A stretch of 64,000 nt of DNA from a virus. The notes under the pieces were generated by a model. That model was not told where the DNA came from and did not search any database. It was given only the letters and a program-made list of their open reading frames with translations. The stretch lies in the UHGV virus genome UHGV-0026213; one strand, written 5' to 3'. This document shows positions 12,990-63,983 of this stretch, one piece after another (positions within the stretch are counted from its first letter, which is position 1; every line of letters starts with the position of its first letter). The position numbers and the translations under genes were made by a program.

Positions 12990-13017
12990 CGGGACGTTCC
13001 TTAGATCGGAATTGAAT

Positions 13018-13041
13018 TCAGATATATATTACTTAAGTGAA
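13018..13041 (+). promoter_or_regulatory. Promoter-like motif TTCAGATATATATTACTTAAGTGA (copy 1)
   Basis: Near-identical 24-mer recurs at about 17405; preceded by TTGAAT; lies in the 370-nt divergent intergenic region. Confidence 0.4.
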
Positions 13042-13410: not shown

Positions 13411-14148
13411 ATGAGAGAATTATTAGACGATATCTTTACCAACACCAGTTTAGAACTTTCTTCTACGGTGGTTAACGAACTAATAGGGCAAACCCAACCT
13501 GCTAAGTTAATCGATGTTGGAACAATTAAACCTGAAGATTATCCAGACAGTGACGTTATCGACTGTATGATTGACGAATACGTGATAGGAAGTTACGCCA
13601 ACCGCGTCTTCTTTGTTATTAATACCGAAACCAGTGTCATGTTAATCTATAAGTTGATCAGTGATGCCGAACTTGAAGTTGTGGCTGACCACATTCGTCT
13701 TCTTGCGAACACACCTACTAGTATCGCTGATGTGCTTATTGGGAACGGTTGGGCTTTACCACCACTATTCTCTTACTTCCCTCTGTTTAGAAATGGGATA
13801 GGGTTACTCCGAAATGCAGAAAATCTTCCCGATAACGTCGAGTTATCACTGCTTGGACCCGGCATCGATCTTTGTCCATTAGAAGACGAGGGCACGCTAT
13901 ATGGTTTGCGCATCTATGTTTCTGTGTTAAACGGATACCGCGTTATTGAACTAATTGCATCCGACTTAGCAAAACAGATCCCAGATGTGGAAACGATTTC
14001 TAAAGCCACCCACCTGGTTGAGATTAACTCAGATGATCCCTTATTGAAATATCACGAGAAAATTGATCTTCGTAAAATCGCCACGATGAGAGGGTGGGGT
14101 TGTGCTGAGATTACGAAGGACTATCTGCTGTTAATTAAAACCGCGTAA
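13411..14148 (+). CDS. Hypothetical protein, member A of a tandem paralog array
   Basis: C-terminus MRGWGCAEITKDYLLLIKTA weakly resembles the GW..QLLF tail of the next three genes. Confidence 0.5.
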   Translation: MRELLDDIFTNTSLELSSTVVNELIGQTQPAKLIDVGTIKPEDYPDSDVIDCMIDEYVIGSYANRVFFVINTETSVMLIYKLISDAELEVVADHIRLLANTPTSIADVLIGNGWALPPLFSYFPLFRNGIGLLRNAENLPDNVELSLLGPGIDLCPLEDEGTLYGLRIYVSVLNGYRVIELIASDLAKQIPDVETISKATHLVEINSDDPLLKYHEKIDLRKIATMRGWGCAEITKDYLLLIKTA

Positions 14149-14177
14149 TTAAGAAAACCGAAAAAGGAGAATATACC

Positions 14178-14732
14178 ATGTTTCAAACTGAACTGAAAAA
14201 TGAAATTATCCAAACCCTTGAAAAGGGCGTAGGCGAACATTTCTTTGTCCGTCCTTATACCGTACTGACCAATACCATTATTCAGCCTGGTGCGATGATA
14301 GTAGGGGTAAGTGTACAAGCTGTAGAGGAAACCCCGCTGCGTCGTAACATCACACGTAAAACCCATATCCCATTTAAAACAGGTTTTACAGATTACCTTC
14401 AGAGCTTACTGGGGGATAGCGCTTGGAAAACAGGCAGCTTCTTCCACGAAGGGAAGACTTCCACGCTGGTTTATAAAGAGAGCACCAAGTATCTGGTTGA
14501 TTTTCTCTTAGCGCGTCAGTATACTTTCTTTCCAACCCCTACTGACTGCACCCCAGACAACCCAGGTAAGTTATTAAACCAAAGCGAAGCCGAGGCACTC
14601 TTTACAAGACTTCGGAATGAACAGTGCGATGTTGACGACTGGGAAACGTTGATCGCGGTCGCTAAAGCCCACGGTTGGTATACCGTACGTAAAATCGGCC
14701 AGCAGCTGTTGTTCTTAGCTTACCCTGCTTAA
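14178..14732 (+). CDS. Hypothetical protein, paralog family member B
   Basis: SD AAGGAG upstream; C-terminal HGWYTVRKIGQQLLFLAYPA. Confidence 0.6.
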   Translation: MFQTELKNEIIQTLEKGVGEHFFVRPYTVLTNTIIQPGAMIVGVSVQAVEETPLRRNITRKTHIPFKTGFTDYLQSLLGDSAWKTGSFFHEGKTSTLVYKESTKYLVDFLLARQYTFFPTPTDCTPDNPGKLLNQSEAEALFTRLRNEQCDVDDWETLIAVAKAHGWYTVRKIGQQLLFLAYPA

Positions 14733-14761
14733 GTAACGAAAAAACCTAAAGGAGAGTAAAA

Positions 14762-15913
14762 ATGCGAAATATTATTTCTAAACCAGGACATGCCAAGATC
14801 CTAAAAGAACTGATGGACAGATGCTATAATCGGACTTGGTCACTACCAAGCTTAACCATCGAATCTTCATTACAACGTGAGTTGTTTGGTTATAACTTGG
14901 GCTGCTGTGTACTTACTGAATACAATGAGATTATCGCACCTGTCGATGTCTGTACTTACGATGAAGAAATTGAAGGTTACAAGTTCGCGGTTTACACAAA
15001 TTGTGGACTAAATTACCGTAAACTCGTTGTTAGGGAAAAGAGTAGCAACCGGAAGATTATGTTTAAGGTCTTCCCAAGTGGTAAAGTCAGTAATTTATGT
15101 CTTCAGCTTGAGAAAGTGCCCTTTCACGGTGCAGCCATTTTAACTAAACCAGAACTCCTGTTATTAAGCGGGTTAATTGGCTTTGAAGTAAAAACCATCA
15201 AAGTTGAGCAGGAACTTACACGAAACGATTTCGGCTCAACTTGGTACGAAAGTTTCTTCCGCTACGAAATGTTAAGTGATAAAGCTATCAAACTCACTTA
15301 CCGTTCTACCGACGATATCGTTTACCACATTTTAATTAGCGGCGAACCCCACCAGATTATTGAAGACGAAGGAGAAAAATCAGTGTGCACCTTAAAAGAT
15401 GAATTAACTGATTTTGTTAACAAAATTGATAACGTGGGTATCAGTGAATTATTGTTCCCGATACAGCATCCAGAGTTGCTTGACGAGAAATCTGAAAACG
15501 TGGTTATGGGTGTGCATTTACTTCCTGACCATCTTGCTATCTACCGTACACTTTCTAAAAATCAACTTAAAGTGTGGTGCCTGTTAAAAGACCTTTTAAC
15601 AGAGGCGGGGTGGTCGTGTAGTGTAGATGTTAACTGTGAAGGAGTTGCGTTCTTCATCACAATAGGCAATCGTAGTTTTTCTGTCGATTTACCTACTCGC
15701 AGCTATTACAATTTCTTCCCGACCGCAGAAGGACGTACTGAAAAAGAACCCGCATTACTGCTCAGTGCTGAGGAGTCCAATGCGTTAATGACGAAACTAA
15801 AAGCGAAAGACGAGAAGCTGGATGCTTTACATCTACCTATAATCGGGAAAGACTACGGTTGGGCTGACGTGCAAAAATACGGCAGCCAACTGTTGTTTGT
15901 TGCCAACATTTAA
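14762..15913 (+). CDS. Hypothetical protein, paralog family member C
   Basis: SD AAAGGAG upstream; C-terminal YGWADVQKYGSQLLFVANI. Confidence 0.6.
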   Translation: MRNIISKPGHAKILKELMDRCYNRTWSLPSLTIESSLQRELFGYNLGCCVLTEYNEIIAPVDVCTYDEEIEGYKFAVYTNCGLNYRKLVVREKSSNRKIMFKVFPSGKVSNLCLQLEKVPFHGAAILTKPELLLLSGLIGFEVKTIKVEQELTRNDFGSTWYESFFRYEMLSDKAIKLTYRSTDDIVYHILISGEPHQIIEDEGEKSVCTLKDELTDFVNKIDNVGISELLFPIQHPELLDEKSENVVMGVHLLPDHLAIYRTLSKNQLKVWCLLKDLLTEAGWSCSVDVNCEGVAFFITIGNRSFSVDLPTRSYYNFFPTAEGRTEKEPALLLSAEESNALMTKLKAKDEKLDALHLPIIGKDYGWADVQKYGSQLLFVANI

Positions 15914-15980
15914 TAAGTGAAACTACACTTTCTCTAACTGCCGCGCTTTAGTCGCGGCTTTTGTTAAGAAGGAAATAGAA

Positions 15981-16754
15981 ATGAAAGTCCATTTAGACGA
16001 TATCTTTAAAACCGAACCGTATATGATCGAAGGCCCGCTATCATCACTACTATTTGCCGATAGATTAGATCGTACGCTGCAATTACAATCGGTCGAATCT
16101 GCACCCGTTGATGATGTAGAGCGTTACGAGCGCATCAACCATACGCGGGGTGAGTATCGTCGCTATAAGCCAAATTCACTAAGCATCAAGCTCTGGCAAG
16201 TGAGCACAGGTAAAGTATTAACTTATCGCGCTGTTGGTAGTTATTACATTCAACAAGCCAAGGAATGGCTAGAGAAAGTTAAAGAACTGAACTTCGATCT
16301 ACTGAGCAAAAAACTGCGCGATCATAACGCCAGTTTGCCGATACGTAATTATTTCTCCACGATTGAAAATAGTCGTTGTTTCGTTTCTCGTGAATCCACG
16401 ATATTACCTGGGGATGATGTTCAGACGACACTAAAAGATGTGGTTGTGAAGAAAATCTTTCATGAATCTGAACACGTTGGGTTCCGTATCTACTTAACAC
16501 ACAAGAGACCATTTACCGTTATTCACGTTGATACCGCACCCGAAGGCTCAGCGGTTATTCGAGAACTTCCTGATGCTCGAGACCGTTGCCCTAATGAGCC
16601 GCTTTATTTAATGTCAGGAACAAAATCAACCGCGTTGATGTCCCGTTACAGCATGTTAGATGTTGTTGACGCTGCTATGAAACTAGGTTGGAAAGAAGTG
16701 CAGCAACATGGTAAACAATTGCTGTTTATTGCCGATGTAAAACTTAATCAATAG
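15981..16754 (+). CDS. Hypothetical protein, paralog family member D
   Basis: C-terminal LGWKEVQQHGKQLLFIADV. Confidence 0.6.
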   Translation: MKVHLDDIFKTEPYMIEGPLSSLLFADRLDRTLQLQSVESAPVDDVERYERINHTRGEYRRYKPNSLSIKLWQVSTGKVLTYRAVGSYYIQQAKEWLEKVKELNFDLLSKKLRDHNASLPIRNYFSTIENSRCFVSRESTILPGDDVQTTLKDVVVKKIFHESEHVGFRIYLTHKRPFTVIHVDTAPEGSAVIRELPDARDRCPNEPLYLMSGTKSTALMSRYSMLDVVDAAMKLGWKEVQQHGKQLLFIADVKLNQ

Positions 16755-17348: not shown

Positions 17349-17385
17349 CGGTGGGGGTTTACCCCCCACCTTTTATTTTTTTGTT
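17349..17385 (+). terminator. Intrinsic terminator
   Basis: GGTGGGGGTTTACCCCCCACC hairpin followed by TTTTATTTTTTT. Confidence 0.6.
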
Positions 17386-17404
17386 CGTTAATATTAAAAA
17401 TAAT

Positions 17405-17428
17405 TTCAGATATATATTACTTAGGTGA
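17405..17428 (+). promoter_or_regulatory. Promoter-like motif TTCAGATATATATTACTTAGGTGA (copy 2)
   Basis: Second copy of the 13018 motif, preceded by an AT-rich tract and about 50 nt upstream of the 17477 gene. Confidence 0.45.
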
Positions 17429-17476: not shown

Positions 17477-17938
17477 ATGAAAATCTTCACTTCCTTTTTA
17501 ATCGCCCTTTTCGTAATCGGTTTCAATACTGCACACGCCGCTATCAATAACTGGGAACAAATACAAAACCCTGGCCAGGCAGTTTACGAAATTGAAGACA
17601 CCGCCGGAAACGGACTGTCTATCAACTGTGACACAGAAACTGCGAATCGCAAATTTTACGGTCGCATGGTTTGGTATTACGGTGAACCCGTAGGTGCAAC
17701 TAACGCGGAAGATAACACGTTGGATATTGTCGTAAACGGCAAGACCTATAACATCCCTACCGTGGACGGTAGTGACAAAGCAGAACACGCTTGGGTTGCT
17801 TTCGTTAATGCTATCGGTAATGCCAAAACTTTCAGTGTGAGTATCAATGGTAACGACACCGCTAACTTTACCGTAGAAGGCGAACGTCTGTCTGAAACTT
17901 TCTTCCAGAACTGTGGACACACCCGTCCTAACAAATAA
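17477..17938 (+). CDS. Small secreted protein (153 aa)
   Basis: N-terminal signal peptide MKIFTSFLIALFVIGFNTAHA; SD GAAGGAG. Confidence 0.55.
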   Translation: MKIFTSFLIALFVIGFNTAHAAINNWEQIQNPGQAVYEIEDTAGNGLSINCDTETANRKFYGRMVWYYGEPVGATNAEDNTLDIVVNGKTYNIPTVDGSDKAEHAWVAFVNAIGNAKTFSVSINGNDTANFTVEGERLSETFFQNCGHTRPNK

Positions 17939-17960
17939 CTATTAGTCTTTTTTAGAGTGC

Positions 17961-18353
17961 GTGAAAATGAATATCAGAACTATACTTTATATCATCATTA
18001 TTTTCTGTGCGGTCGGAATTACTGGCACTTATGCTTTCGGTGATTCGGATGTCCGCTATTACGAACCGGCTCCTGACTCACCGATTATCAACCCGGATGA
18101 GACGCCTGCGTTAATGCGCAGTTTCGGTAAACTGCAAGTTTATCGTTTAGTGCGTGGTGAAACCTGTACGGGTTTACTCATTGCTGACACCCGTGCACAA
18201 GTCTACCAACGTCTAACCGATATCGCCTGCGAACAACCAAAAGTCATGTCGGTTAGTATCCATCCGCTATCAGTTGGTAACTATACCGCTGTGGACTTCT
18301 TTCACAACGCCGAATTAATCGGGCGCGTTACCTTAAATCGTCCTGCCGAATAA
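17961..18353 (+). CDS. Small secreted or membrane-anchored protein (130 aa)
   Basis: Hydrophobic N-terminus ILYIIIIFCAVGITGTYA. Confidence 0.5.
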   Translation: MKMNIRTILYIIIIFCAVGITGTYAFGDSDVRYYEPAPDSPIINPDETPALMRSFGKLQVYRLVRGETCTGLLIADTRAQVYQRLTDIACEQPKVMSVSIHPLSVGNYTAVDFFHNAELIGRVTLNRPAE

Positions 18354-18371
18354 TCTAAAGGAGTAGTTATA

Positions 18372-18857
18372 ATGAAACGTTTACACACATTGATGTTCTT
18401 TCTGGTTTTCTTGTTTATCGGTACCACGCCAACTGTAGATGCGGCCTCCGTAGACGAATTGCTTACCTGCGATGGAAACGCTTGGGAAGGTCAGCCAAAT
18501 GCGTGCCCAAACATCAACGACTTGTACGATACCGATAAGTCGTTTAAAGCCGTTGTTGATAAAACATTAGACCCTGTGGGGCTGGATGGTATGTTCGGCT
18601 CTAAAGGTTACATGGATGGTCCTGGCGGTAACATGTATCCGGTAAACATCAACAACAAAATCTGGATTGAAAGTGGCGGTTGTAAAGCTAACGCTTGTGG
18701 TTGGGAATACATCGTAACGCTATACAACCCACACACCAAGAAACTCGTCGGCTATTACTACAACATCGACCCCGGTTATCTGATTTGGTTCGGTGATATC
18801 GGTGTTGCTGAATTCGCTTACCTGGTTAAGAAGTACGTAGAACAATCTAAATACTAA
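18372..18857 (+). CDS. Small secreted Cys-containing protein (161 aa)
   Basis: Signal peptide MKRLHTLMFFLVFLFIGTTPTVDA; SD AAAGGAG. Confidence 0.55.
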   Translation: MKRLHTLMFFLVFLFIGTTPTVDAASVDELLTCDGNAWEGQPNACPNINDLYDTDKSFKAVVDKTLDPVGLDGMFGSKGYMDGPGGNMYPVNINNKIWIESGGCKANACGWEYIVTLYNPHTKKLVGYYYNIDPGYLIWFGDIGVAEFAYLVKKYVEQSKY

Positions 18858-18868
18858 GGACTTTTATC

Positions 18869-19279
18869 ATGAAAACTATCATTAATACTCTTCTCATTGC
18901 AATTGCTGTTCTGTTCTCTGTCAACGCTACAGCAAAGACAATACAGTTGCCAGACAATATTAAGTACGTCAATAGCACCGATGATTTCTATTGTACGGAA
19001 ATTGACGGCTTGTACTGTCAGGCAAAGAGCCTGTTTAAATACAAAGGTAGCAGATACGTATTCATCGTTGAGCAAGGTGGTGCCTGGTGCTACGACAGCC
19101 CAATGTCCGTACTCAACCTCGAAACGTGGAAGGCTCAGCGTCTCGAATACAACGACAAACGTCTGTGCTCTGGTAATAACAAACCATTCTTCAAAGTCGT
19201 AGATGGTGTGCCAATGGTAGGGATATTAGACACTTCGGAAAAACCTATCGTTGTAGCTATGGATAAACTTAAAATTTAA
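18869..19279 (+). CDS. Small secreted Cys-containing protein (136 aa)
   Basis: Signal peptide MKTIINTLLIAIAVLFSVNATA. Confidence 0.55.
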   Translation: MKTIINTLLIAIAVLFSVNATAKTIQLPDNIKYVNSTDDFYCTEIDGLYCQAKSLFKYKGSRYVFIVEQGGAWCYDSPMSVLNLETWKAQRLEYNDKRLCSGNNKPFFKVVDGVPMVGILDTSEKPIVVAMDKLKI

Positions 19280-19289
19280 GGAGTAACTC

Positions 19290-19679
19290 ATGCGTCTCGT
19301 CTGCGTTTTAGCATTCTTCTTCTCCCTGAGTGTAGCAGCATCTACTCAAGTTAACGATTTACTGCTAACCCCAAACAACAATACCGATTACCAGTACAAT
19401 CCTCCTGGGTTTGAAGTTTGTGAAGTCGGTGAAACAATCTGCCAAGAAGTCGGCGCAGACGGGCGCTATATTCTGGTAAAAGCTGATGGTGGCACAATGT
19501 GTCCCGCAGGTTATTACTTTCTGCTCGATTCCGTCGCAAGAGAGGTTCTTCCTATCACCACAAAAACGTGCGACCCTACTGTTGTCTTAACTCTCGCTAA
19601 AAGCAAATCTCGCGACCGTTATCTGATTGTTATCGAAGAACGGGGCAAGATGGCTGGTGCTATCGAATTAGATCATTGA
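19290..19679 (+). CDS. Small secreted Cys-containing protein (129 aa)
   Basis: Signal peptide MRLVCVLAFFFSLSVAAS; followed by terminator hairpin. Confidence 0.55.
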   Translation: MRLVCVLAFFFSLSVAASTQVNDLLLTPNNNTDYQYNPPGFEVCEVGETICQEVGADGRYILVKADGGTMCPAGYYFLLDSVAREVLPITTKTCDPTVVLTLAKSKSRDRYLIVIEERGKMAGAIELDH

Positions 19680-19745
19680 GTGTAGTCTTGGCCCCGATAC
19701 GTTCGGGGTCCTTTTTACGACATGTTTACCTAAAGGAGTATTAAA

Positions 19746-20887: not shown

Positions 20888-20965
20888 CGTTTGGGAGAAC
20901 CTTCGGGTTCTCCCTTTCTTTATTTTTTTCTTTTTACACCACACTCCGTCTTTATGGAGGTGGGT

Positions 20966-23470
20966 ATGCTAAAAGTTGAACGCATTATACTCAAAGGTTT
21001 TACGGGGATGGGGTTACATGAAATTGAAACCTTCGATTTCACTATCCAGTCTCCGACAACAATTATCCTGGGTGGGAACGGCTGCGGGAAAACCAGTCTA
21101 CTGTCTGTGTTCTTACCCTTAGCACCGGCTAAAACAGAATTTAGGGACGGCGGTTCTTACACAAACTACTGTTTAGTTGGCGATCAACGCTATCGTTTCA
21201 AAGTTGCTCGTAAAGGCAACTCATTGGTTTGCGATATTGAGAACTTGACTACGGGGGCAAAGATCGTCGAGCAAGGTAATGCGAAAGTCTACAACTCCCG
21301 TGTTGAAGAAATCACAGGTATTACGAAAGAGATTAAAGAATTATTAAATGGTGAGGTGTTGTTAACCGATGCGGGAACTGAATTACGCCGCAAATGGTTT
21401 TACCGTTTAAGTACCTCTGACCTCACTTACGCGTTAGGGTTTTATCAACGTTTACGTAAAAACCTTACTGCCTTAAATGGGGGTATTGAAATCACCAGCC
21501 GTAAAATCGCCGAATTGCGGACGCGTGTTATTGAGAACGAGGAAGAACGGCAGCAGTTGGCGACGAGATTAAAAGGTTTGGAATCGGATTTACGTGAACT
21601 GAACCGAGAAATCGAACAGTTGCCAGGATTAAATCGTGCCGTCACCATCGAAACAATCCAAGCGTTATTAAACAGCTTGGGCCCAACCATCGACGCAATA
21701 TTACAACATCGTGGTGGACTGCCTACTGATGAACAGATACTGGCCGCGCGACAAAACGAAGCGACGGCCCGCGAAGCTGTCGTGTCTACTGAAACAGAGG
21801 TATCGATGTTGAATAAAGACTTGTCGTTATTGATGGATGAGTCGACACGACAGGACTACCTGATGCGGAATCACGAAGGTCTCAAGAATACGCTGGCACG
21901 TTTACGTGAGTTACTTACCAAATGGGACACTGAACATCTCTTTCCGGGTCTATTTAACGATAACGTCAATTTAGACCAACTTCGTGCGGCTACCGACGCG
22001 CGTGTTTGGGGACAACGGTTAGGAACAACGCTGGACGCAATTCATTCGACCGAAAAACTCAATGTTTTGGAAGAACGGCTTCTGGTGATGGATCAAAAAA
22101 CCGCCGGGTTGCGGGATAGACTCCAGCGAGTGGAGAACGTTTTACAGAATTTAAATCACGAACGTAACCACTACTTAGAAACAGCGGAAGTGGATTGTCC
22201 GCAGTGTCGGTTTAAGTTTCGACCAGGCGTTACGCGTTCTTTGCCTGAACTTGAGTCTTCGATTCGTGGACAGCAACAGCAGCGCACGGAACTGCAAACG
22301 CAGTTAGAGACCTTATTACGCGATCGTGTTGAATTAGAATCTGATGTAACTTATATGCGGCAGGTTCGTGAGATTGTACTGACGTATTCAAAGGACCCGG
22401 TATTGAGCATGTTCTTTAAGCGTTTGCAAGAACGTAACGTTTTCACAGAATCACGCGAACAGTTCGGGAGTCTATGCGCAGCGTTTGACAGCGAGTTGTA
22501 CTCTGCTATTGAGTACCATGAAACCCGTCAACGGTTAGTGAAGGCGGAAAAAGAATGGCAGGATGCCGTGGCGACCGTTGGTAACGTCGATGGTGCTTTA
22601 CAACAGAAAATCGCCTTCCAACAGTCACGATTAGGTAAAGCCACAGAAATGCTCTCAATGCGTCGTAGAGAGCACGAACTGGCTAACACGACACTTACCT
22701 ATCTGGTGAATGTTAAACGTGCTGTAGATGATTTCAGTGCGTTATTCGAACGGTTAGAGAGTGATGTTAAGGTTACGTTGACAAATACGGTCGTCGAGGA
22801 ACTCTTACGTGCACGAGAAGGGAAGCTGGATGCTTTTACAACCGCACGCGAACGTTATCGTCAGATGGAAAATGAATTGAATCAGCTCAACAGTTTGGAA
22901 CGCGAACTTGCTGACTTACAAGCCCAGCAGTTCAATAACAAACTGATGATTCAAGCCTTCTCTCCAGAAAAGGGTGTACTTAGAAAGTATTTTTACAACG
23001 CTATCGTTAGAATCACAGAGTTAATGACGCGTTATATCGAACAAGTCTGGACGTACCCCATGCGCGTTATGCCTTGTGACCTCACTGACGGTGATTTGGA
23101 TTATACTTTTCCTGTCCAGCTAAAAACGCATCCTGAGCCTGTTCCTGACGTGCGTAAAGGGTCTAAGGCGCAGCGTGCGATATTTAATCTGATGTTCAGG
23201 CTGACTGCGTACAAAGCGCTGATGTTGCATCAGTTTCCATTGCTTTTGGATGAGCCTTCGGAAGGCATGGATGAGGAGCACCGTAACAACCTGGTCGGCT
23301 TTATTAAAACGTTAGCAAACTCGGGAGAATTTTCTCAACTGTTGGTAGTCTCCCACGAAGCCGAGGTTCATTCTAAACTTAATGAAGCATCGTACTGTGT
23401 CATCGAACCGGAAGGGGTGACATTGCCTGCGGTGTATAACGAAGGAGTAAAAATTGTTTATGCAAACTGA
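20966..23470 (+). CDS. SbcC/Rad50/SMC-family ATPase
   Basis: N-terminal Walker A ILGGNGCGKTSLL, long central coiled-coil region, C-terminal Walker B-like PLLLDEPSEGMD then VVSHE. Start refined to an internal ATG with GGAGG SD; the ORF-track start at 20891 overlaps the upstream terminator. Confidence 0.6.
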   Translation: MLKVERIILKGFTGMGLHEIETFDFTIQSPTTIILGGNGCGKTSLLSVFLPLAPAKTEFRDGGSYTNYCLVGDQRYRFKVARKGNSLVCDIENLTTGAKIVEQGNAKVYNSRVEEITGITKEIKELLNGEVLLTDAGTELRRKWFYRLSTSDLTYALGFYQRLRKNLTALNGGIEITSRKIAELRTRVIENEEERQQLATRLKGLESDLRELNREIEQLPGLNRAVTIETIQALLNSLGPTIDAILQHRGGLPTDEQILAARQNEATAREAVVSTETEVSMLNKDLSLLMDESTRQDYLMRNHEGLKNTLARLRELLTKWDTEHLFPGLFNDNVNLDQLRAATDARVWGQRLGTTLDAIHSTEKLNVLEERLLVMDQKTAGLRDRLQRVENVLQNLNHERNHYLETAEVDCPQCRFKFRPGVTRSLPELESSIRGQQQQRTELQTQLETLLRDRVELESDVTYMRQVREIVLTYSKDPVLSMFFKRLQERNVFTESREQFGSLCAAFDSELYSAIEYHETRQRLVKAEKEWQDAVATVGNVDGALQQKIAFQQSRLGKATEMLSMRRREHELANTTLTYLVNVKRAVDDFSALFERLESDVKVTLTNTVVEELLRAREGKLDAFTTARERYRQMENELNQLNSLERELADLQAQQFNNKLMIQAFSPEKGVLRKYFYNAIVRITELMTRYIEQVWTYPMRVMPCDLTDGDLDYTFPVQLKTHPEPVPDVRKGSKAQRAIFNLMFRLTAYKALMLHQFPLLLDEPSEGMDEEHRNNLVGFIKTLANSGEFSQLLVVSHEAEVHSKLNEASYCVIEPEGVTLPAVYNEGVKIVYAN

Positions 23471-25670: not shown

Positions 25671-26396
25671 ATGTATAAATCCAACTGGAGAAACAAAATG
25701 TTTCGTATCTTCTTTCTTTTACTGGTAACACTTTTCGCGTTTAACGCACAGGCGTCAACGTCAACGCCACATTCTAAGCATCAGCGTGAGTTTGCACAAA
25801 TCCAACATCGGTTCGAAAAAGTCAGCCCGTTAATTGTGGAAATCTCACGAAAGCAGGGCGTTGATCCCAAGCTGATGATTACGCTGATTTATCGTGAATC
25901 GCGTTTTGATCCCAAGGCTTACAACAAAAGCTCACGAGCACATAGCCTGGTACAGATGCTTCCAAGTACCAAGCGTAATCTGCTAAAGCTTTATGGAAAA
26001 GAATTAGGTCTTAGTCAGAACGCTGATTTGTATAATCCGCGTAATGCTGTTTTGCTGGCTACCGCGTATGTTAAACATCTTGAGAAGGGGTTAACCAAAC
26101 GACTCAAACGCAAGCCCACCATGGCTGAAATTGCGTTAGCTTACCACTGGGGTGAAAGTGGCGCTCACACGCGAATCAAAAGCAAATCTCGAGCAGCACA
26201 ACGAGAAATGGCAGGCTTTATGAAAGACGCCGCGTTCTATAGCGCGAAAATCGATGTGCCTGTTGTTGTGGGCTCGGCCCCACGTCAGCTTGCGTTTGCG
26301 AAGAAAACACCACGTCAGATTCAACTGGCGGAAGTTAGTAGAATTTGGGATACGATAAACACGAGTTTTCCAATCAATAGAGGAGTTACCCTTTGA
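25671..26396 (+). CDS. Secreted lytic transglycosylase (SLT domain)
   Basis: Signal peptide MFRIFFLLLVTLFAFNAQA (probable true start at the internal ATG near 25698) and catalytic-region motif IYRESRFDPKAYNKSSRAHSLVQMLPST. Confidence 0.6.
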   Translation: MYKSNWRNKMFRIFFLLLVTLFAFNAQASTSTPHSKHQREFAQIQHRFEKVSPLIVEISRKQGVDPKLMITLIYRESRFDPKAYNKSSRAHSLVQMLPSTKRNLLKLYGKELGLSQNADLYNPRNAVLLATAYVKHLEKGLTKRLKRKPTMAEIALAYHWGESGAHTRIKSKSRAAQREMAGFMKDAAFYSAKIDVPVVVGSAPRQLAFAKKTPRQIQLAEVSRIWDTINTSFPINRGVTL

Positions 26397-26968: not shown

Positions 26969-27448
26969 ATGATAAAGTTCATTTGGCGTTATCCAACGCG
27001 TTTTTGGTTTGTGGTACTTGAATTGTTTATGGTCCTTGTGGCGATTACTTTTGTCGAAGCGCCCGCCTCGCAGTTGGCTATTTTCTGCCTTTTCGTGACT
27101 GTCCCTGTATGGGTGATTGCGAAGGCTATTAAGTTCGTCATGGTGTGTTGGGCGAATTATACCTGTCCGTATAAACCTAAACAAATCATGAACTGGCTGA
27201 TGTATATTGAAGAACGTTTACCGGCGCAGCATAAATTACTGGGCTGGTCGTCAATGTTGGATATTGCGCTAGAAACCAATGCAAAGTTTCCCGGTGCGAA
27301 AAACCCTTATTTGTTGATGGCAGTAATTGTTGCACAACAAAAACTGGTAGGTGACCGTTGGTTGCCAGAAGAAGCGAAAGCGTATATCCGTAAACATCCA
27401 AAAGCTTTTTACTCGGTAGGACAATGGCGTAACTTGCCATTATTTTAA
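26969..27448 (+). CDS. Membrane protein (about 3 TM helices)
   Basis: SD AAAGGAG; hydrophobic segments FWFVVLELFMVLVAITFV and AIFCLFVTVPVWVIA. Confidence 0.5.
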   Translation: MIKFIWRYPTRFWFVVLELFMVLVAITFVEAPASQLAIFCLFVTVPVWVIAKAIKFVMVCWANYTCPYKPKQIMNWLMYIEERLPAQHKLLGWSSMLDIALETNAKFPGAKNPYLLMAVIVAQQKLVGDRWLPEEAKAYIRKHPKAFYSVGQWRNLPLF

Positions 27449-31114: not shown

Positions 31115-31618
31115 ATGGGTTCATTTTTTAAAGTGCTTCCGTTCTTCCTTCAGATGTTAATGGAAGCATTTAAACCAGGAGAAGGAGAAAACGTATCAAG
31201 AGCAAGCAAGATAATGACTTTAATCATCACGATCTTGTTGTCGTATTCTGGCTTCGTCTCCTACGCCTATGTACAACAGTTTCACGCGCTCGTTGCAGTG
31301 CAGTCTCATGACACGTATATGTCGCAGTCTTACCAAGAGATGAAACAAGATCGAGATAAACTAAAAGAAGATAATGGGAAGTTATACGACAGGCTCTTCG
31401 TTTGCCTCGGCCAGAAACCGCCATATGAAAGCACGTTTAATTCATCGAAAGCGAGCGGTACGGCGAAGGATCTGTCTTCGACAAAACCAGAAACTCCTGT
31501 TAATCCAGCTTCAACACCAGAACAACGTAAAGAGGCTTCGGCGAGACCTGTTGGCAATTTAAATGCGAACAGCTTTCGACAGGAGATCATAAAGACGCTA
31601 ACGTCTTCTAAGGAGTGA
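31115..31618 (+). CDS. Membrane-anchored coiled-coil protein (i-spanin-like architecture, tentative)
   Basis: One TM segment IMTLIITILLSYSGFVSYAYV followed by a charged helical region. Confidence 0.35.
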   Translation: MGSFFKVLPFFLQMLMEAFKPGEGENVSRASKIMTLIITILLSYSGFVSYAYVQQFHALVAVQSHDTYMSQSYQEMKQDRDKLKEDNGKLYDRLFVCLGQKPPYESTFNSSKASGTAKDLSSTKPETPVNPASTPEQRKEASARPVGNLNANSFRQEIIKTLTSSKE

Positions 31619-32077
31619 TTGATGAAAATGCTGTTATTCATCATGATGGTGTTCGTGGGGTTGGTGAGTAATAGCTACGGCGACGAAGTTAAACGTCCAG
31701 CTTATAGGCCACTGGAACTTCCTCCTACACCGCCAATAATGGTGAATTGGAAAATTGACAATAATGCAATGCGTGAGTATGTTGCGGATGTCAACACCTA
31801 TGCTTACTACGTTTATGTCTACACCCGAAATTTAAACCAACAAGCCGTTAAACGTGGCTGGAGCCCACCAATGCTGGCTCCACTTTGTGAACGTTATGAG
31901 TTACCGAAGTTACATGTTGTACCTGAACGCTTATCTCTTGATGAAAGTTCTTTAACGCCCCAAGAGATTAGCCGTGATTTATCGCGTAAACTCAATAATT
32001 TGTTGTGGAATTACCGTTCCGACCGTCAGACACTGCTCGATTCGTATAACCAATACTTGACATCGTGTTTGTACTGA
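31619..32077 (+). CDS. Secreted Pro-rich protein (152 aa)
   Basis: Signal peptide MMKMLLFIMMVFVGLVSNSYG with no lipobox Cys; PAYRPLELPPTPP. Confidence 0.4.
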   Translation: MMKMLLFIMMVFVGLVSNSYGDEVKRPAYRPLELPPTPPIMVNWKIDNNAMREYVADVNTYAYYVYVYTRNLNQQAVKRGWSPPMLAPLCERYELPKLHVVPERLSLDESSLTPQEISRDLSRKLNNLLWNYRSDRQTLLDSYNQYLTSCLY

Positions 32078-44171: not shown

Positions 44172-44202
44172 TCTTACTACCTCAATTTCAAAAAGAAGTC
44201 AG

Positions 44203-44219
44203 ACAGATATTATCTACGT
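44203..44219 (+). promoter_or_regulatory. Promoter-like motif CAGACAGATATTATCTA
   Basis: Third copy of AGATATTATC, preceded by TTTCAA about 16 nt upstream; in the divergent region between the 44171 minus gene and the 44243 plus gene. Confidence 0.4.
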
Positions 44220-44242
44220 GAGACATTCTTTAGGAGTGAATT

Positions 44243-50224: not shown

Positions 50225-50544
50225 TGACTGTGAACGACAATATAAAGAAAAAGATTGACGAAATCATAAGCGTCAGTTTAGATAGAATCGAATTAATTCC
50301 CGAAACTAAGGAGATCAAATATTACGTTCCTGCGGACGAACTATTTCCAGGTCTTCTTAGAATCTCACCAAAAAAGGTTGAAGAGGCTAAACGGCAATTC
50401 GAAGTTCGTGGCCTTAAGGTTGACATTGTTAACAAAAAACATTTCCAAGTAACGTATAGTCAGGAAAACATTATATTTAGTCCTGAACAAGCGCAACGTA
50501 ATTTAGATATTTTAACGAAACGAATGGGGAATAATAACAAATGA
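50224..50544 (+). CDS. Hypothetical protein (106 aa)
   Basis: Start overlaps the upstream stop; its stop overlaps the thyA start. Confidence 0.4.
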   Translation: MTVNDNIKKKIDEIISVSLDRIELIPETKEIKYYVPADELFPGLLRISPKKVEEAKRQFEVRGLKVDIVNKKHFQVTYSQENIIFSPEQAQRNLDILTKRMGNNNK

Positions 50545-52076
50545 AACAGTATTTAGCGTTAATGCAAGACATTCTGGATAACGGTGTTGTCAAGAAAGAC
50601 CGCACAGGTGTAGGGACACTATCTGTATTTGGTCGTCAACTACGTTTTGACCTGAAAGAAGGTTTCCCATTAGTTACTACGAAGAAGGTTCACCTGAAAA
50701 GTATCATTCATGAACTGTTGTGGTTCTTAAACGGTGACACTAACGTGAAGTACCTGCAAGAGAACGGGGTAAAAATTTGGGATTCATGGAGGCGGCCATA
50801 CGTAGGTTTTACTGGTAAAGTCATTCGCATTCCACGATTGAAAAAAGAATACGTCCCTTTTAATGGAACTTTTCCTTTGGCCATTCCTAGTTTCGATTCA
50901 ATAGAAGATAAAAAATTGGCATACGCCTGGAAACGAATGATGCATCGCTGTTATGATAAAACAGCACATAACTACCGACATTATGGTGCAAAGGGTGTAA
51001 GCGTTGCTTTACGTTGGCACGACGTAACTAATTTTGTTAACGATGTTAAAAAACTGCAAAATTGGTTTTATAAAAGTAAGAACTGGAATGACTTCGAACT
51101 CGATAAAGATTATTACGGCTCCAATCAATATTGCCCCGACGGATGTGTATGGCTCAGTAGAGGAGAAAACGTCCATCATGCGTGGGTACGCATTATTAAA
51201 GGTGACGGAACACAATACATTTGCCGAACGTATAAACATGCATCCCAATTAACTGGTTTAAGCAAAACATCCATCCACAGATTCGTTAAGGAAGGCATTA
51301 CCCCACATCTTAAAGGAAATAACAGAATCAAAGGTGTAAAAAATTGGATTATGCAAAAAGCTACTACTGAAGACTACCTCTATCGCAACGAAATTAACGA
51401 CGACGGAGATTTAGGCCCAGTCTACGGTAAACAATGGCGAGATTGGGTAGGTCCAGACGGTCGCCACCACGACCAGATCAGCAAAGTTATCCAACAACTT
51501 CGTGAAGACCCTGACTCCCGCCGTATTATCGTTAGCGCCTGGAATGTAGGTGACCTGGACGATATGGCACTTAATCCATGCCACAACTATTTCCAATTCT
51601 ACACAACAGAAATGACGTTGCTTGAACGACTGGATTGGTACGAAGCAAATGAACCGGAAAAATTTGCGAACGCGCCACTTATTAATCACGAAGATATTGA
51701 TGATGAAGAACGACTTCATGAAACTTTAGATCGTGAAGGTATCCCTCGTCGTAAGCTTTCATGTTTTTACATGATGCGGAGCAACGATTACCTACTCGGC
51801 GCGCCATTTAACGTCGCTTCGTACGCGTTGTTAACTCACATGATTGCACAGCAGTTGAACATGGTTCCAGACGAGTTGGTTTATAGTGGTGTAGATGTTC
51901 ATCTTTACTCTAACCATCTGGAGCAGGCAAAACTACAACTTACTCGCGAACCTTACCCGCTACCTAAACTGGTTATCAAACGTAAACCTGATTCCATCTT
52001 CGATTACAAATACGAAGACTTCGAATTAGTTGGTTATCAATCGCACGACACAATTAAAGCTCCCATAGCTGTCTAA
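50541..52076 (+). CDS. thyA: Thymidylate synthase with two in-frame insertions (511 aa)
   Basis: N-terminus MKQYLALMQDILDNGVVKKDRTGVGTLSVFG, and GDLGPVYGKQWR, DSRRIIVSAWNVGDLDDMALNPCH, PFNVASYALLTHMIAQQ, PLPKLVIKRKPDSIFDY all align with ThyA; catalytic Cys retained. About 205 extra aa after IWDSW and about 46 extra aa after QFYTT. Confidence 0.85.
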   Translation: MKQYLALMQDILDNGVVKKDRTGVGTLSVFGRQLRFDLKEGFPLVTTKKVHLKSIIHELLWFLNGDTNVKYLQENGVKIWDSWRRPYVGFTGKVIRIPRLKKEYVPFNGTFPLAIPSFDSIEDKKLAYAWKRMMHRCYDKTAHNYRHYGAKGVSVALRWHDVTNFVNDVKKLQNWFYKSKNWNDFELDKDYYGSNQYCPDGCVWLSRGENVHHAWVRIIKGDGTQYICRTYKHASQLTGLSKTSIHRFVKEGITPHLKGNNRIKGVKNWIMQKATTEDYLYRNEINDDGDLGPVYGKQWRDWVGPDGRHHDQISKVIQQLREDPDSRRIIVSAWNVGDLDDMALNPCHNYFQFYTTEMTLLERLDWYEANEPEKFANAPLINHEDIDDEERLHETLDREGIPRRKLSCFYMMRSNDYLLGAPFNVASYALLTHMIAQQLNMVPDELVYSGVDVHLYSNHLEQAKLQLTREPYPLPKLVIKRKPDSIFDYKYEDFELVGYQSHDTIKAPIAV

Positions 52077-57806: not shown

Positions 57807-60800
57807 TTACGCTGATTTACGACTAACGTCGAGTTGCGGCGCGGGTTGAGTTATTGACACGTTACGTGACGCCGAACCCGGAGCGGTTGACGCCGGGTTA
57901 GCCGGTCCGTTTTGCATAGCCTGTGGCCGCTGACGAAGAATTGTTACAATCTCTTTCAGATAGCCTGCAGACTCTTTTGCAACCGCCAGCTGTTGTACGC
58001 TGATCGGATCACCGCTGTTCACTGTGGAACCGGTCTGAGCATCGGAAGTCACCGTTGGTGCAGGACGGGCTGATTTCTCCAGCTGCTGTCTAGCACCTTC
58101 TTTTACTTTAGCAACATCCTCTTCGGCCAGGCCATCAGCACGTGCATTTTGACCCACCGTTTCTACAACAACTGACGCATCACTCGGTGTAACGTCACCA
58201 CCAGGGCTCGGCACAGCCGGACCACCGCCCGTCGCAGCTTTAATGTCATCAGCCCCCATTGCACCTTTGTCTGCTAAAGCGGAGTCACGATTCGCCTCGT
58301 TCGCGGCTGGCAGGTTATCTGCCGGGCCAGAAATAGACGGATCGTTAGCAGCGCCCGCAGCGATGGCTGGGGATGACGGCATTGGCGTTACGCCTGTCGT
58401 CAAGTCTTTCAGCGATGCCTGGTTAGCCGCGATCGCGTTTGTTCCTACAGCACCAATCTTACCACCCATGATGTTGAGCACTTCATCCAAACTACGCAAT
58501 TTTCCATTCTTGTAGAAAATTGTGCTGTTTGCCGCGATTTGATCGGCCGACGCACCACGCGACGATGGCCCGTTCGGATCACGCTTCCATTCTTGCAGGA
58601 ATTTCTTACCGCCACCTTGTCCTAAGAAGTGGTAGAGGTAAACAGCTGCACCTGGAGGATCGATACCACCTAAATCCTTTCTGGCTTTCTCGATATTATC
58701 ACGAATATGACGGACGCCAAGCAGAGCATTCGCCCACGGGTCATACTGGTTGGTTTGCGGGATACCATAACGTCTCGCATAAGCTTTCATCTGCGCACCC
58801 CAGGTATCGTTGATGAACTGGAACAAGCCAGCCGCAGAACTTCCTTTAGCTTTGATACCGTATCTAAGCCCAGATTCTGCTTGTGCCATTCCCAGTGCTA
58901 ACGCTGGAGGAACACCCATCATCTTCGCTACGTCTGTAATCAGTGCTGCAACCGCATTCAAGTTAGGCTTCAATCCGTCACCCAACGTTGAAATTGGATA
59001 CTTAGCCGCTAACGTTTTATAGTCACCGTCTTGCATATCGCCAAGTTTCACGCCGAAGTTACCGGTAGTAAATGCAGCGTAATTCTTAGCTCCCATCTGA
59101 CCGTAAGCACCGGCCAAATCGTTTGGTGTGCCGTAATTCCCACCGTCGTTTGCCGCTGGTTGCAATAGGTCACGATAAGAGGAGGAGGTGTTCATCTGTG
59201 GTCGAGACGGTTGCTCCTTCTCATCGTCAGTCAAGAACATCTGAGTCGCGCGATCTTTTCGCTGCCAGTTCACACGGAAACCCGCAGAAGGCGTAGCACG
59301 CAGCGTTTTACGTACTGCCAAATCAGCTTCCTTAGACAGTTCTTTCAGGTTCTCTAACTCCGTTGCAACTGAACCGGCGTCGGTGTTAGCGTCTCCCCCT
59401 AACGGGTTAAACGGTACCTCCCACACTGACTGACGAATACCCCCTTTCAGGTTGTATGCACCACGCATCATCAGTGCGATTTCATACAAGAACCCACCCG
59501 TAACACGTAGGTCCATCGGATCGGCAGCAGGAACATAACGTTTTACCCCAACGATGTACGTCATGAAGACAGGTAAGAAGCGGTTATAGAACCAGTTCTT
59601 GTACCGATCTTCTTTTGGTCCACCAATGGCGTCGGGCGCAATCACCGCAATCGCACGTTTCCAGTCGCCTTTATACGTACAACTTTTCACATCGGTGTCT
59701 TGCAACACTTGACGTTCCAAGAGCGTATAGAGGTTACGGGTTGTTTGAGTAATACTCACCGCACCATAAGCTTTCAACCTTACGGACTCCAAATCACGGA
59801 GATCGGTTTCTTTAGGTAAACTTCTCCAGTCGACTTGAACCTGAACTTGTTCGGTGCCGTCTTCCCAACCTTCGACTTTCGCAACTTCTTTGTTGCGTTC
59901 CGCATCCGCTTGAGCCAACGCTTGGGTCGATTCTGCCACAGAAGCAACTTTGTGTCCTTCGGCCACACCGCCTGTAGCATTTACATCCTTACGTTTTTCA
60001 TCACGACGCATGTTAATCGAACGAAGCACGCGTTCTTGCGCTTCAACGACTTCTTCGCCTGACAAAAACTCGGCCGGGGTAAACGTTACGAAATCCCACG
60101 CTTTAGAGAACCAACCTTGGTTAACCTTGCGGGGATCTTCTAATGCACGGAATGCAGGCGCATCTTTCGACATCTTCATTTTGTTGAAGATGTTCAGCAT
60201 GTCCGCTTTCGACACTTTCGCTGGATTACCGACGTCTGCTAACGCGATATCGTTATCCATAGATTTCAGTGCCGTAATCCAACGTAAGTAAATGGGCACA
60301 AAACGTTGTAGCATAAACGCACTAAACGCCAGCATTTCGCCTTTGTCTTCTACGTTAGTACCAAACCCTTCGGCCAGTTTCTTCACGTCGTCACCGGACA
60401 AACCACGCAACTGTGCTTGGCCATTCTCTGTATAAGAGATGTACGGTTTCAAGTTGTCTTCTAAATAACGTGCTTTTGCGCCATCGTCGGAAGACCATTC
60501 GTCGTGATCTCTAAATCCGTACTGTGCCAATCGCATGTTATCCAGATACTGGGCATTTACACGGGTTGCCGTTTTATACGCAAACCAAGACAACGCAGCG
60601 CCTGCAGCGACCAAACCGATGATCGGCCAGCCAACCGCAGTTACCACTGCAGATGCCGCTGTCGCGACAGCACTCACCGCAGGGACAGCCAAACGGGTCA
60701 CAGCAAACTTACCAACGTTCCACAACGCTTTACCTGCAAACCCAACCGGCTTAAAGATTCCCCATTTTGCAACTTTACCTAAGATTGAACCCACTGTGCC

Positions 60801-63800: not shown

Positions 63801-63983
63801 TTCTGGATTTTTCTCTAACTCGCCACGAGTCCAGTTTTGGAGACGCTCGATCTGGGGTTGTAAGAACCGTTTTGCTAACCAACCACCGGCAAACCCTGCC
63901 GCTTTATTACGCGAGTTTGTGTTACGACGGTCAGGGGACAAAGATGAGCTGTCCGACATGCCAAAGTCATCTTCCTGAGCCAT
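57807..63983 (-). CDS. Tape-measure-like giant virion protein with internal lytic transglycosylase domain (2058 aa)
   Basis: Central hydrophobic/Gly-Ala-rich segments (LPLVGPIVSILGTVGSILG..., AVPAVSAVATAASAVVTAVGWPIIGLVAAGAALSWFAY), Arg/Trp-rich repeats, and an SLT motif (GMAQAESGLRYG...AAGLFQFINDTW) in the C-terminal third. Confidence 0.6.
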   Translation of the reverse strand: MAQEDDFGMSDSSSLSPDRRNTNSRNKAAGFAGGWLAKRFLQPQIERLQNWTRGELEKNPEVMKRLEKLNYIVSNKSSLSNSAIAGESSGWLADFFRLLNDVGLVNPLRRETLALDDRSAESLSAAAKFDRKAYLSITEVIPTLLSEINKSIRRGYGEHHDQVYDLTTRGMVDRKVIGNRVRKAVANDDQRKRLQTYINDTVDFIDKDKTLDNKTRQALADYIESRASEGKAFDVGSLLKDPMHMYRYMNANAVEAIQGVLEARSAELVGGHHELSNAISNKIAAIQSTIRARQDTVDAASVIYGENALRDSGIFKYDAKKDIFEVDKDINDPYTLFNDLSMGKTRSGRSLTREQEIQRKLQNGSALGDYLRRMGAGAEPSFEDKELSNVRGGGKGGRGRGLSARQLAAVLYGEKSTNFVELLSSRPDTNAGLEQQFDRLIDAVRKQPESSTVQDILKHVKNMDEEGILLASLGGSRDDGDEPESSGESGRKRRRKRKRVVLGETGLLRRWAGVLWDTGSGVGRFGKNLFLRGKDRLQALGGFIRGKFSGGSSEGPGVFSRLKGLVTGTLSTGWNSAVAFGKGVLGVRDIYDERGNVVLQGSRLEAGEYYQADPKTEKLIQLKTLDDIKLGRDIVDEAGNLILAAADLAAAGKLRFYKGGKVQALFQYISGKAGTAVNKAVTLPKKLLGFISPKAASLFEKAREWLNEVPEGAEKTRLQSMISRVTGMPARLWNNAKRGFEKLKELASDNPLTRWWQNRKEGGSGGGFSVFSWSNGRKTNHILIRIYKLLNRRLPGEPEDDTWTEQMERNTGASSVKGLFQRAKDIRDGFREHFQGFRDWRGRMRDRMSRYRSAVGGRLSRWGGAARDWFDRFRGRASDMVDTFRDPRYDIGTRYRMESRLAGRDDDVAEFYRQHIYARGKVSKTRIIDAAKEDLDTVTDSAGRVINKGKQKARSVGSALLERLNRMVNLQEMSWFNTMRDSAEKAGASDGLLRTMFSKFGQRNKPPASDEKRDYFQFFRRRRRSKEEEKAKKEAEKKGGKRGVMDFLKGLPLVGPIVSILGTVGSILGKVAKWGIFKPVGFAGKALWNVGKFAVTRLAVPAVSAVATAASAVVTAVGWPIIGLVAAGAALSWFAYKTATRVNAQYLDNMRLAQYGFRDHDEWSSDDGAKARYLEDNLKPYISYTENGQAQLRGLSGDDVKKLAEGFGTNVEDKGEMLAFSAFMLQRFVPIYLRWITALKSMDNDIALADVGNPAKVSKADMLNIFNKMKMSKDAPAFRALEDPRKVNQGWFSKAWDFVTFTPAEFLSGEEVVEAQERVLRSINMRRDEKRKDVNATGGVAEGHKVASVAESTQALAQADAERNKEVAKVEGWEDGTEQVQVQVDWRSLPKETDLRDLESVRLKAYGAVSITQTTRNLYTLLERQVLQDTDVKSCTYKGDWKRAIAVIAPDAIGGPKEDRYKNWFYNRFLPVFMTYIVGVKRYVPAADPMDLRVTGGFLYEIALMMRGAYNLKGGIRQSVWEVPFNPLGGDANTDAGSVATELENLKELSKEADLAVRKTLRATPSAGFRVNWQRKDRATQMFLTDDEKEQPSRPQMNTSSSYRDLLQPAANDGGNYGTPNDLAGAYGQMGAKNYAAFTTGNFGVKLGDMQDGDYKTLAAKYPISTLGDGLKPNLNAVAALITDVAKMMGVPPALALGMAQAESGLRYGIKAKGSSAAGLFQFINDTWGAQMKAYARRYGIPQTNQYDPWANALLGVRHIRDNIEKARKDLGGIDPPGAAVYLYHFLGQGGGKKFLQEWKRDPNGPSSRGASADQIAANSTIFYKNGKLRSLDEVLNIMGGKIGAVGTNAIAANQASLKDLTTGVTPMPSSPAIAAGAANDPSISGPADNLPAANEANRDSALADKGAMGADDIKAATGGGPAVPSPGGDVTPSDASVVVETVGQNARADGLAEEDVAKVKEGARQQLEKSARPAPTVTSDAQTGSTVNSGDPISVQQLAVAKESAGYLKEIVTILRQRPQAMQNGPANPASTAPGSASRNVSITQPAPQLDVSRKSA

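Follow-up and report, generated by a model that had tools for sequence, protein, structure and literature searches.

The genome of the virus UHGV-0026213 contains, in the stretch of 64,000 nucleotides analysed here (the window), a block of five small genes, o1 to o5 (17477-19679, + strand), which is probably an early operon of periplasmic accessory proteins that do not become part of the virion. The export of the products and their family memberships were assigned by computation. By transitive homology and predicted fold o3 belongs to the Ivy family, and at least one member of the block is likely to inhibit a cell-wall hydrolase. We propose superinfection exclusion or envelope protection as the function of the operon, a reading that we rank first and hold tentatively. 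The genes had formerly been listed as hypothetical proteins only; new at the level of annotation are, judged from sequence comparisons, the Ivy-family member, a member of the YfjT family (o1) and a link to CP4-57-type islands. Little is known about the activity of nucleus-forming and related jumbo phages outside the cytoplasm, and the operon presented here is defined, conserved, probably early and devoted wholly to proteins with predicted export signals.

The phage itself is a new, distant relative of Seoulvirus (SPN3US) and Erskinevirus (Asesino), as follows from its SbcC/SMC-like protein, which is encoded 3' of the block (20891-23470) and shows 69% identity to Asesino gp207 and 58% identity to the orthologues of the SPN3US group. 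All known sequences of this phage come from metagenomic contigs of ~220-225 kb and from contigs in Salmonella and E. coli assemblies.

The five-gene unit and its export signals

A preliminary description of this DNA had reported five adjacent genes, each with a signal peptide, several with cysteines in the mature part, directly after the second copy of a promoter-like motif. All of these points were borne out. The listing of open reading frames confirmed five adjacent reading frames of 129-161 amino acids (aa), all on the + strand. The first, o1 (17477-17938, 153 aa), codes for a secreted protein of the YfjT family (PF27224; phrog_3429). It is followed by o2 (17961-18353, 130 aa, phrog_9424), the orthologue of SPN3US gp180 and Asesino gp201, by o3 (18372-18857, 161 aa), which encodes a divergent periplasmic protein of the Ivy family, and by two members of a four-cysteine family, o4 (18869-19279, 136 aa, phrog_8968; orthologous to SPN3US gp182 and Asesino gp203) and o5 (19290-19679, 129 aa, phrog_5248; orthologous to gp183 and gp204, respectively). 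GGAG-type ribosome-binding sites precede four of the five genes. The reading frame of o2 opens with GTG, while its close relatives start at an ATG two codons further 3' (17967), which is likely the true start.

Signal peptides were called by a heuristic of our own and not by SignalP, and export is therefore a prediction. The n-h-c architecture was found in all five proteins, with a basic n-region, a hydrophobic h-region free of charge and a small-x-small cleavage site. The predicted signal peptides comprise residues 1-21 of o1 (NTAHA↓A, the arrow marking cleavage), residues 1-24 of o3 (TVDA↓A; MKRLHTLMFFLVFLFIGTTPTVDA↓AS), residues 1-22 of o4 (NATA↓K) and residues 1-17 of o5 (SVAA↓S). The N-terminus of o2 (GTYA↓F) is either a signal peptide or a signal anchor; since its h-region spans 17-19 residues, o2 may remain uncleaved in the membrane. 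A lipoprotein nature of o2 was rejected, as a lipobox-like LAAC is present only in SPN3US gp180 and missing from the orthologues. The n-h-c architecture is retained in orthologues with diverged signal sequences. All five mature parts contain cysteines, and their numbers are even throughout (2, 2, 4, 4 and 4 for o1 to o5, those of o2 in its periplasmic part). This is the expectation for disulfide-bonded periplasmic proteins and suggests that the five are of this kind. Applied to ~71 greedy, non-overlapping gene calls across the window, the heuristic yielded a single further signal peptide that was convincing (31619-32077); that of an SLT enzyme at 25671 was added on inspection. The chance that five of six signal-peptide genes among 71 form one run is ~3e-5.

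The block is a single transcription unit consisting of promoter motif, five genes and terminator. Upstream, an intrinsic terminator (17350-17380, +) with the hairpin GGTGGGGGTTTACCCCCCACC (17350-17370; eight pairs, seven of them G-C) and a following T-run, found by the terminator scan, ends the preceding transcription unit. Directly 3' of the stop codon of o5, a second intrinsic terminator (19690-19720, +; hairpin 19690-19710 with eight pairs, six of them G-C, then CTTTTT) closes the five-gene unit. In between lies the phage promoter-like motif (17398-17428, +; repeat family D1), whose 18-nucleotide core TCAGATATATATTACTTA (17406-17423) is located 54 nucleotides (nt) 5' of the first ATG. Exact copies of this 18-mer occur at 13018 and 17406, where 0.07 would be expected by chance in the window; the full motif copies cover 13010-13040 and 17398-17428, and a degenerate third copy lies at 44191-44221 (+).

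The 18-mer is also found before the corresponding cassettes of related phages: 81 nt 5' of gp180 with one mismatch in SPN3US, 5' of gp200-204 without mismatch in the Erwinia phage Asesino, and with one mismatch in a metagenomic relative (L010). In the loci of the relatives it occupies 4903-4920 of L001, 3277-3294 of L002, and 602-619 and 4930-4947 of L010, and its relative position is the same in SPN3US and Asesino. The motif region shares ~90% identity with intergenic stretches in SPN3US and phiEaH2, and this intergenic stretch represents the only similarity of the block region to any deposited phage at the nucleotide level. The motif, which is always intergenic and always 5' of small hypothetical genes, is kept nearly exact across phage genera whose proteins are just 30-70% identical. 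In jumbo phages with RNA polymerases of their own, the detectable conserved AT-rich motifs 5' of operons are early promoters of the virion RNA polymerase, whereas bioinformatic prediction fails for middle and late promoters (PMC7598289). From this statement and the presence of the motif we infer early expression of the block, and the motif (TCAGATATATATTAC) probably serves the virion RNA polymerase as the early promoter in the SPN3US group.

Two further groups of genes touch on these features. Directly 3' of motif copy 1, four tandem genes (13411-16754, +; 245, 184, 383 and 257 aa) form a paralogous family without assigned function; a C-terminal domain is common to all four and to SPN3US gp175 and Asesino gp195 (phrog_26772, phrog_33648). 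The small signal-peptide protein encoded at 31619-32077 (+; 152 aa, phrog_8165) has two cysteines and a proline-rich N-terminus, and directly 5' of its gene a 167-aa protein with one transmembrane segment is encoded (31115-31618). The 152-aa protein has no lipobox, and the two are therefore no obvious spanin pair.

Four protein families and the Ivy-like member

The five genes represent four families, namely o1, o2, o3 and the paralogues o4 and o5. In the mutual similarity check o4 and o5 were the one paralogous pair, and in profile-profile comparisons the o1, o2, Ivy-like and four-cysteine profiles were unrelated beyond the signal peptides. The proteins o4, o5, gp181-183 and gp202-204 can be aligned as members of a single family, and each of the four cysteine columns is invariant in these 8 paralogues. 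The AlphaFold2 (AF2) model of o5 is all-beta, with a predicted local distance difference test score (pLDDT) of 64.5, and has no informative neighbour in the PDB.

Orthology was found for three members of the block, together with synteny to the SPN3US gp180-183 cassette. The o2 protein is 48% identical to gp180 and 44% to gp201 (phrog_9424, E 5e-40) and was found in 53 phage records by tblastn. The identity of o4 to gp182 and gp203 is 30-32% (phrog_8968, E 3.5e-33), and o5 is 48-51% identical to gp183 and gp204 (phrog_5248, E 5e-31; also phrog_8968 at E 0.004). Like the block described here, the SPN3US and Asesino cassettes lie two genes 5' of the SbcC-like gene, in the same order, at the same distance and with the same 18-mer, and gp180-gp183 of SPN3US and gp201-gp204 of Asesino, listed as hypothetical proteins, all carry signal peptides as o1 to o5 do. 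SPN3US and Asesino share four of the five slots with this phage. The third slot differs: it is occupied by a four-cysteine paralogue in SPN3US (gp181) and Asesino (gp202), but by the Ivy-like o3 in this phage, and o3 has no similarity to gp181 or gp202. Both phages also lack a YfjT gene, which is present here as o1.

The preliminary description had considered that the proteins could turn out to be virion components. This does not hold for the orthologues gp180, gp182 and gp183 of o2, o4 and o5, nor for the gp181 slot, because none of SPN3US gp174-192 appears among the 83 proteins of the virion mass-spectrometry table (Table S4, Thomas et al. 2016, PMC5105663). Its suggestion of exported envelope accessory proteins outside the virion, by contrast, is consistent with the signal peptides and with this proteome.

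The assignment of o3 to the Ivy family was reached through intermediate sequences and profiles. In direct comparison o3 gave E 0.0013 with the NCBIfam model NF007443 (Ivy), at 18.6 bits below the cutoff of 180, and no match at E<=0.1 with Pfam PF08816. A hidden Markov model (HMM) of the o3 family built from eight sequences, however, retrieved 53 matches at E<=1e-3 from 1.84 billion proteins, for example with E 5.7e-20 and 1e-14 over ~130 of 160 positions. We aligned 27 of the longer distant HMM matches with o3 and two close homologues, and of these 30 relatives 25 matched PF08816, at best with E 7.6e-12. Aligned by hhalign, the o3 family (11-sequence alignment) matched E. coli Ivy with E 4e-4 over 81 columns, placing C104-KANA-C109-G of o3 on C57-KPHD-C62-G of Ivy; the E. 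coli Ivy sequence used was identical to that of 1GPQ. The fold predicted for o3, an antiparallel sheet flanked by helices, is that of Ivy, and in a Foldseek search of 350,542 chains with the o3 model seven Ivy chains occupied ranks 1-7 (E 0.05-0.3, probabilities 0.54-0.96). A Sec signal peptide predicted by the heuristic would place o3 in the periplasm, where Ivy proteins act.

Ivy proteins carry a disulfide-closed beta-hairpin loop with which they enter the active-site cleft of their target enzymes, lysozymes and lytic transglycosylases; in hen lysozyme, the catalytic residues are contacted by the histidine of this loop. In o3 the corresponding C-x4-C loop, C104-K-A-N-A-C109 (18681-18698, +), lies between two predicted beta strands (96-101 and 114-119). 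The loop cysteines are nearly invariant in the 30 relatives, and the loop reads C-[KEQ]-x-H-x-C in 23 of 28 of them; the histidine is also present in the homologue from an E. coli island (P0014, CKAHAC). On these grounds o3 may inhibit a lysozyme or a lytic transglycosylase. Among 50,697 deposited phage genomes, canonical E. coli Ivy gave a sole tblastn match (38% identity), a gene annotated as hypothetical protein in Escherichia phage PHB10 (MK524177.1, 14591-14950).

Homologues of o1 at 74-93% identity have a precomputed match to PF27224:YfjT, and o1 is 27% identical to E. coli K-12 YfjT over 135 aa (E 1.4e-13, blastp against a small local database); the family call is based on these two results and not on a direct model score. 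Neither o1 nor o3 gave a tblastn match in the 50,697 deposited phage genomes. Scans of the five proteins against Pfam, NCBIfam and PADLOC yielded nothing above threshold, the weak Ivy match of o3 being the only signal, and none of the five matched a PHROG family with known function. When PDB sequences were searched with o1, o2, o3 and the profiles of o3 and of the four-cysteine family, the matches stayed at chance level. For the lysozyme inhibitors MliC/PliC, PliG and PliI neither family models nor folds matched. Spanins (Rz/Rz1) were ruled out by the missing conserved lipobox and coiled coil, the beta-rich prediction and the distance of 6 kb from the endolysin gene. The literature held no functional data for SPN3US gp180-183, YfjT, phage Ivy homologues or superinfection exclusion in jumbo phages.

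Turnover of the cassette and its relatives on islands

As judged from the related loci, the cassette is modular, with families swapped, duplicated or lost between related phages. The YfjT copy number is zero in SPN3US, one in the present phage and two in L010; in L010 and L012 two tandem YfjT genes raise the number of exported proteins to six. In L011, o4 is lost and o3 truncated. In L015/L016 (3511-5714) identity to the window is 93-95% for o1 and o2, 65-67% for o3 and 76-80% for o4 and o5. This drop indicates allelic replacement and is consistent with a recombination break between o2 and o3.

Relatives of the phage proteins are also encoded on islands of Enterobacterales. The o1 protein is a homologue of YfjT, which belongs to the yfjS-yfjT pair of the cryptic prophage CP4-57 of E. 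coli K-12. An E. coli homologue of o3 with 66% identity is located in an equivalent cargo slot of CP4-type islands, flanked by genes for a dynamin-like GTPase, YjcZ and patatin on one side and for DUF932, antirestriction, RadC and CbeA/CbtA proteins on the other; the full 1.9-kb region occurs in ~40 of 5,426 complete E. coli genomes. In Yersinia rohdei (L020, 6001-7014) and Pantoea ananatis (L022, 6001-6998), a four-cysteine gene whose product is 63-68% identical to Asesino gp202 is flanked by a WYL regulator on one side and a YfjT gene on the other. It is directly 5' of yfjT and thus takes the position of yfjS in CP4-57. Islands and phages of the Erskinevirus type thus appear to have exchanged genes recently. 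With homologues of o1, o3 and the four-cysteine proteins on islands, three of the four phage families are common to one island cargo slot. For K-12 YfjS itself, the comparison with the four-cysteine profile (hhalign E 0.008, probability 5%) does not establish homology. While the island genes stand among genes for GTPase, WYL regulator, DUF932, antirestriction, RadC and CbtA/CbeA proteins, those of the block form a phage operon.

At one such E. coli locus (L004, 5098-6483, a CP4-type island of the chromosome) the o3 homologue with its CKAHAC loop is just a hypothetical protein in RefSeq and lies 3' of a gene for a 180-aa signal-peptide protein. The latter was considered as a further relative of the four-cysteine profile and found to be unrelated to it. 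Some gene calls (P0021, P0023, P0024) fuse the E. coli o3 homologue to a 5' signal-peptide-like extension.

Possible functions and comparison with known systems

We propose that o1 to o5 would be exported by the Sec pathway, become disulfide-bonded and function within the periplasm of the host cell during infection, not being built into virions, and that the operon would there counteract enzymes that act on the cell wall from its outer side. The foremost candidate target would be the SLT-type lytic transglycosylase carried by the tail of another phage that superinfects the cell, so that the operon would be a functional analogue of T4 Spackle and provide exclusion or envelope protection over the long infection cycle. 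Its YfjT, Ivy-like and four-cysteine families would come out of the same pool of genes that also fills the cargo slot of CP4-57-type islands. Superinfection exclusion or periplasmic immunity had already been named in the preliminary description, and this suggestion gains from the predicted Ivy-family membership of o3, the class expected for a Spackle-like factor.

The genome of the phage itself encodes two candidate targets of the SLT type, and Ivy is reported to inhibit lytic transglycosylase (Clarke et al. 2010, cited in PMC11390936). An SLT domain (Pfam SLT, E 3.7e-7, above the gathering score; 58677-58937, - strand) forms aa 1683-1769 of a giant protein of 2058 aa (57807-63983), which we take to resemble the phiKZ tail protein gp181. 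Outside the operon, a Sec-exported SLT lytic transglycosylase of 241 aa is predicted at 25671-26396 (+; Pfam SLT, E 9e-15), the homologues of which are annotated as putative endolysin in SPN3US-like phages. Its signal peptide looks cleavable (MYKSNWRNKMFRIFFLLLVTLFAFNAQA↓STS, with the site FNAQA↓STS), and the endolysin would therefore be exported and not cytoplasmic. Located 3' of this gene, a 159-aa protein with two transmembrane segments (26969-27448) could be a holin. Elsewhere in the window, a reading frame of 511 aa (50541-52076, +) contains both segments of thymidylate synthase and, at about residues 120-271, a segment of an HNH endonuclease; it may represent a homing-endonuclease insertion or fusion in thyA.

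Several observations weigh against exclusion or envelope protection as the function of the operon. SPN3US and Asesino have no Ivy-like gene, and the role of the conserved core (gp180, gp182, gp183) can therefore not depend on an Ivy-like protein, while the core itself, gp180 and the four-cysteine proteins, is without predicted activity. For o1, o2, o4 and o5, searches of the model libraries, the PDB and structures gave no informative homologues or folds, and none of the five proteins matched a PADLOC or other defence family at E<=1. The relationship of o3 to Ivy is remote, as o3 stays below the Pfam and NCBIfam thresholds and Ivy was not among the results when PDB sequences were searched with the o3 profile; confidence in the AF2 model of o3 is low (pLDDT 56), and its Foldseek E-values lie at just 0.05-0.3. 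In o3, Asn107 replaces the loop histidine (H60 of E. coli Ivy), for which reason the inhibitor activity or specificity may differ; the change suggests a different target or affinity. Finally, early timing is supported by the motif and a review statement and not by transcripts of this phage group.

The second-ranked alternative, which we regard as unlikely, is a control of lysis timing, in which o3 and perhaps its neighbours would hold the phage's own SLT endolysin inactive until programmed lysis. The protein encoded at 25671-26396, with its cleavable-looking signal peptide and its homologues annotated as putative endolysin, would occupy the same periplasm as the inhibitor, and according to a reference in PMC11390936 (Clarke et al. 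2010) lytic transglycosylases are inhibited by Ivy. SPN3US and Asesino, however, possess the same exported endolysin but no Ivy-like gene, so that an inhibitor is not needed for their lysis, which weakens this explanation. In addition, the cassette does not adjoin the endolysin gene, and its promoter appears to be of the early type.

A hardening of the envelope against attack other than by phages, be it by animal lysozyme, by muramidase or amidase effectors of type VI systems or by bacteriocins, or else a damping of host autolysins, ranks third and appears quite unlikely to us. It would let the cell survive the long latent period of a jumbo phage. Canonical Ivy shields E. coli from C-type lysozyme once the outer membrane has been permeabilised, whereas Salmonella is without Ivy, and relatives of the phage occur in Salmonella and E. 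coli assemblies; homologues of the block genes lie on CP4-type islands, which are rich in stress and defence cargo.

Receptor masking, which the preliminary description had listed too, or a remodelling of the outer membrane would mean that the proteins bind outer-membrane receptors, lipopolysaccharide or the Tol-Pal machinery and keep other phages from adsorbing or their DNA from entering, in the manner of T5 Llp or the T4 Imm class, the likeness to Ivy being irrelevant. The predicted export of all five proteins and a possible membrane anchor of o2 would fit, as would the fast turnover of families between related phages, which arms-race genes would be expected to show. Yet no canonical lipobox is conserved (LAAC in SPN3US gp180 only), nothing akin to Llp, Imm, Cor or comparable families emerged from Pfam, PHROGs and PADLOC, and nothing specific speaks in favour, so that we consider this improbable. 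Highly improbable is that the genes are dispensable mobile cargo, selfish passengers of islands and phages without a role for the phage, or that they have an assembly role missed by virion proteomics: families common to CP4-57-type islands, variable gene content and the decayed copies in L011 would agree with it, but the gp180/gp182/gp183 core, the promoter and the position by the SbcC-like gene are kept across genera with 30-50% identical proteins, and this conservation, with all four cysteine columns invariant, indicates purifying selection over a long period.

If the prediction for o3 within the favoured reading of exclusion or envelope protection is true, the phage would possess an independently evolved or acquired counterpart to T4 Spackle that is of the Ivy type. 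This would explain exclusion between competing jumbo phages and be relevant to the design of phage cocktails. Through the link to islands, the function of the uncharacterised E. coli gene yfjT might be approached, perhaps also that of yfjS, and that of the unannotated Ivy-like gene in a subset of E. coli genomes. As a more speculative extension, to which we give little credence, YfjT-like, Ivy-like and YfjS/four-cysteine proteins could be interchangeable inhibitors of the peptidoglycan-cleaving enzymes with which incoming phages or other invaders pass the cell wall, and form a mobile 'periplasmic shield' common to jumbo phages and CP4-57-type islands. With such a module, the E. coli orphan genes yfjS and yfjT would be assigned a function for the first time, and an envelope-level class of exclusion would be defined for lytic phages and islands, in which the His or Asn of the loop tunes the enzyme that is blocked.

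Compared to the canonical Ivy proteins (E. coli YkfE and P. aeruginosa Ivyp1; PF08816), o3 is just 13-17% identical to the solved structures. It contains an additional N-terminal disulfide pair (C33, C45) that is missing from E. coli Ivy, and its predicted loop reads CKANAC where that of Ivy carries a histidine. Unlike canonical Ivy, o3 is encoded by a lytic jumbo phage in an operon of other exported proteins.

T4 Spackle (gp61.3), an early, small and disulfide-bonded periplasmic protein with a cleaved signal peptide, inhibits the incoming tail lysozyme gp5 and thereby causes superinfection exclusion (PMC7677548). We propose it as a working analogy for the block, which would likewise be early, exported and disulfide-bonded and provide a hydrolase inhibitor. 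The analogy does not extend to sequence or fold, since beta structure predominates in the models of o3 and o5 and the five proteins match no PHROG of known function. Spackle is an alpha-helical bundle of 75 residues that acts allosterically (PMC7677548), whereas o3 is predicted to form an Ivy-type beta-sheet with an insertion loop. Likewise, the target of Spackle is a T4-type lysozyme, while that of the operon described here would be an SLT lytic transglycosylase.

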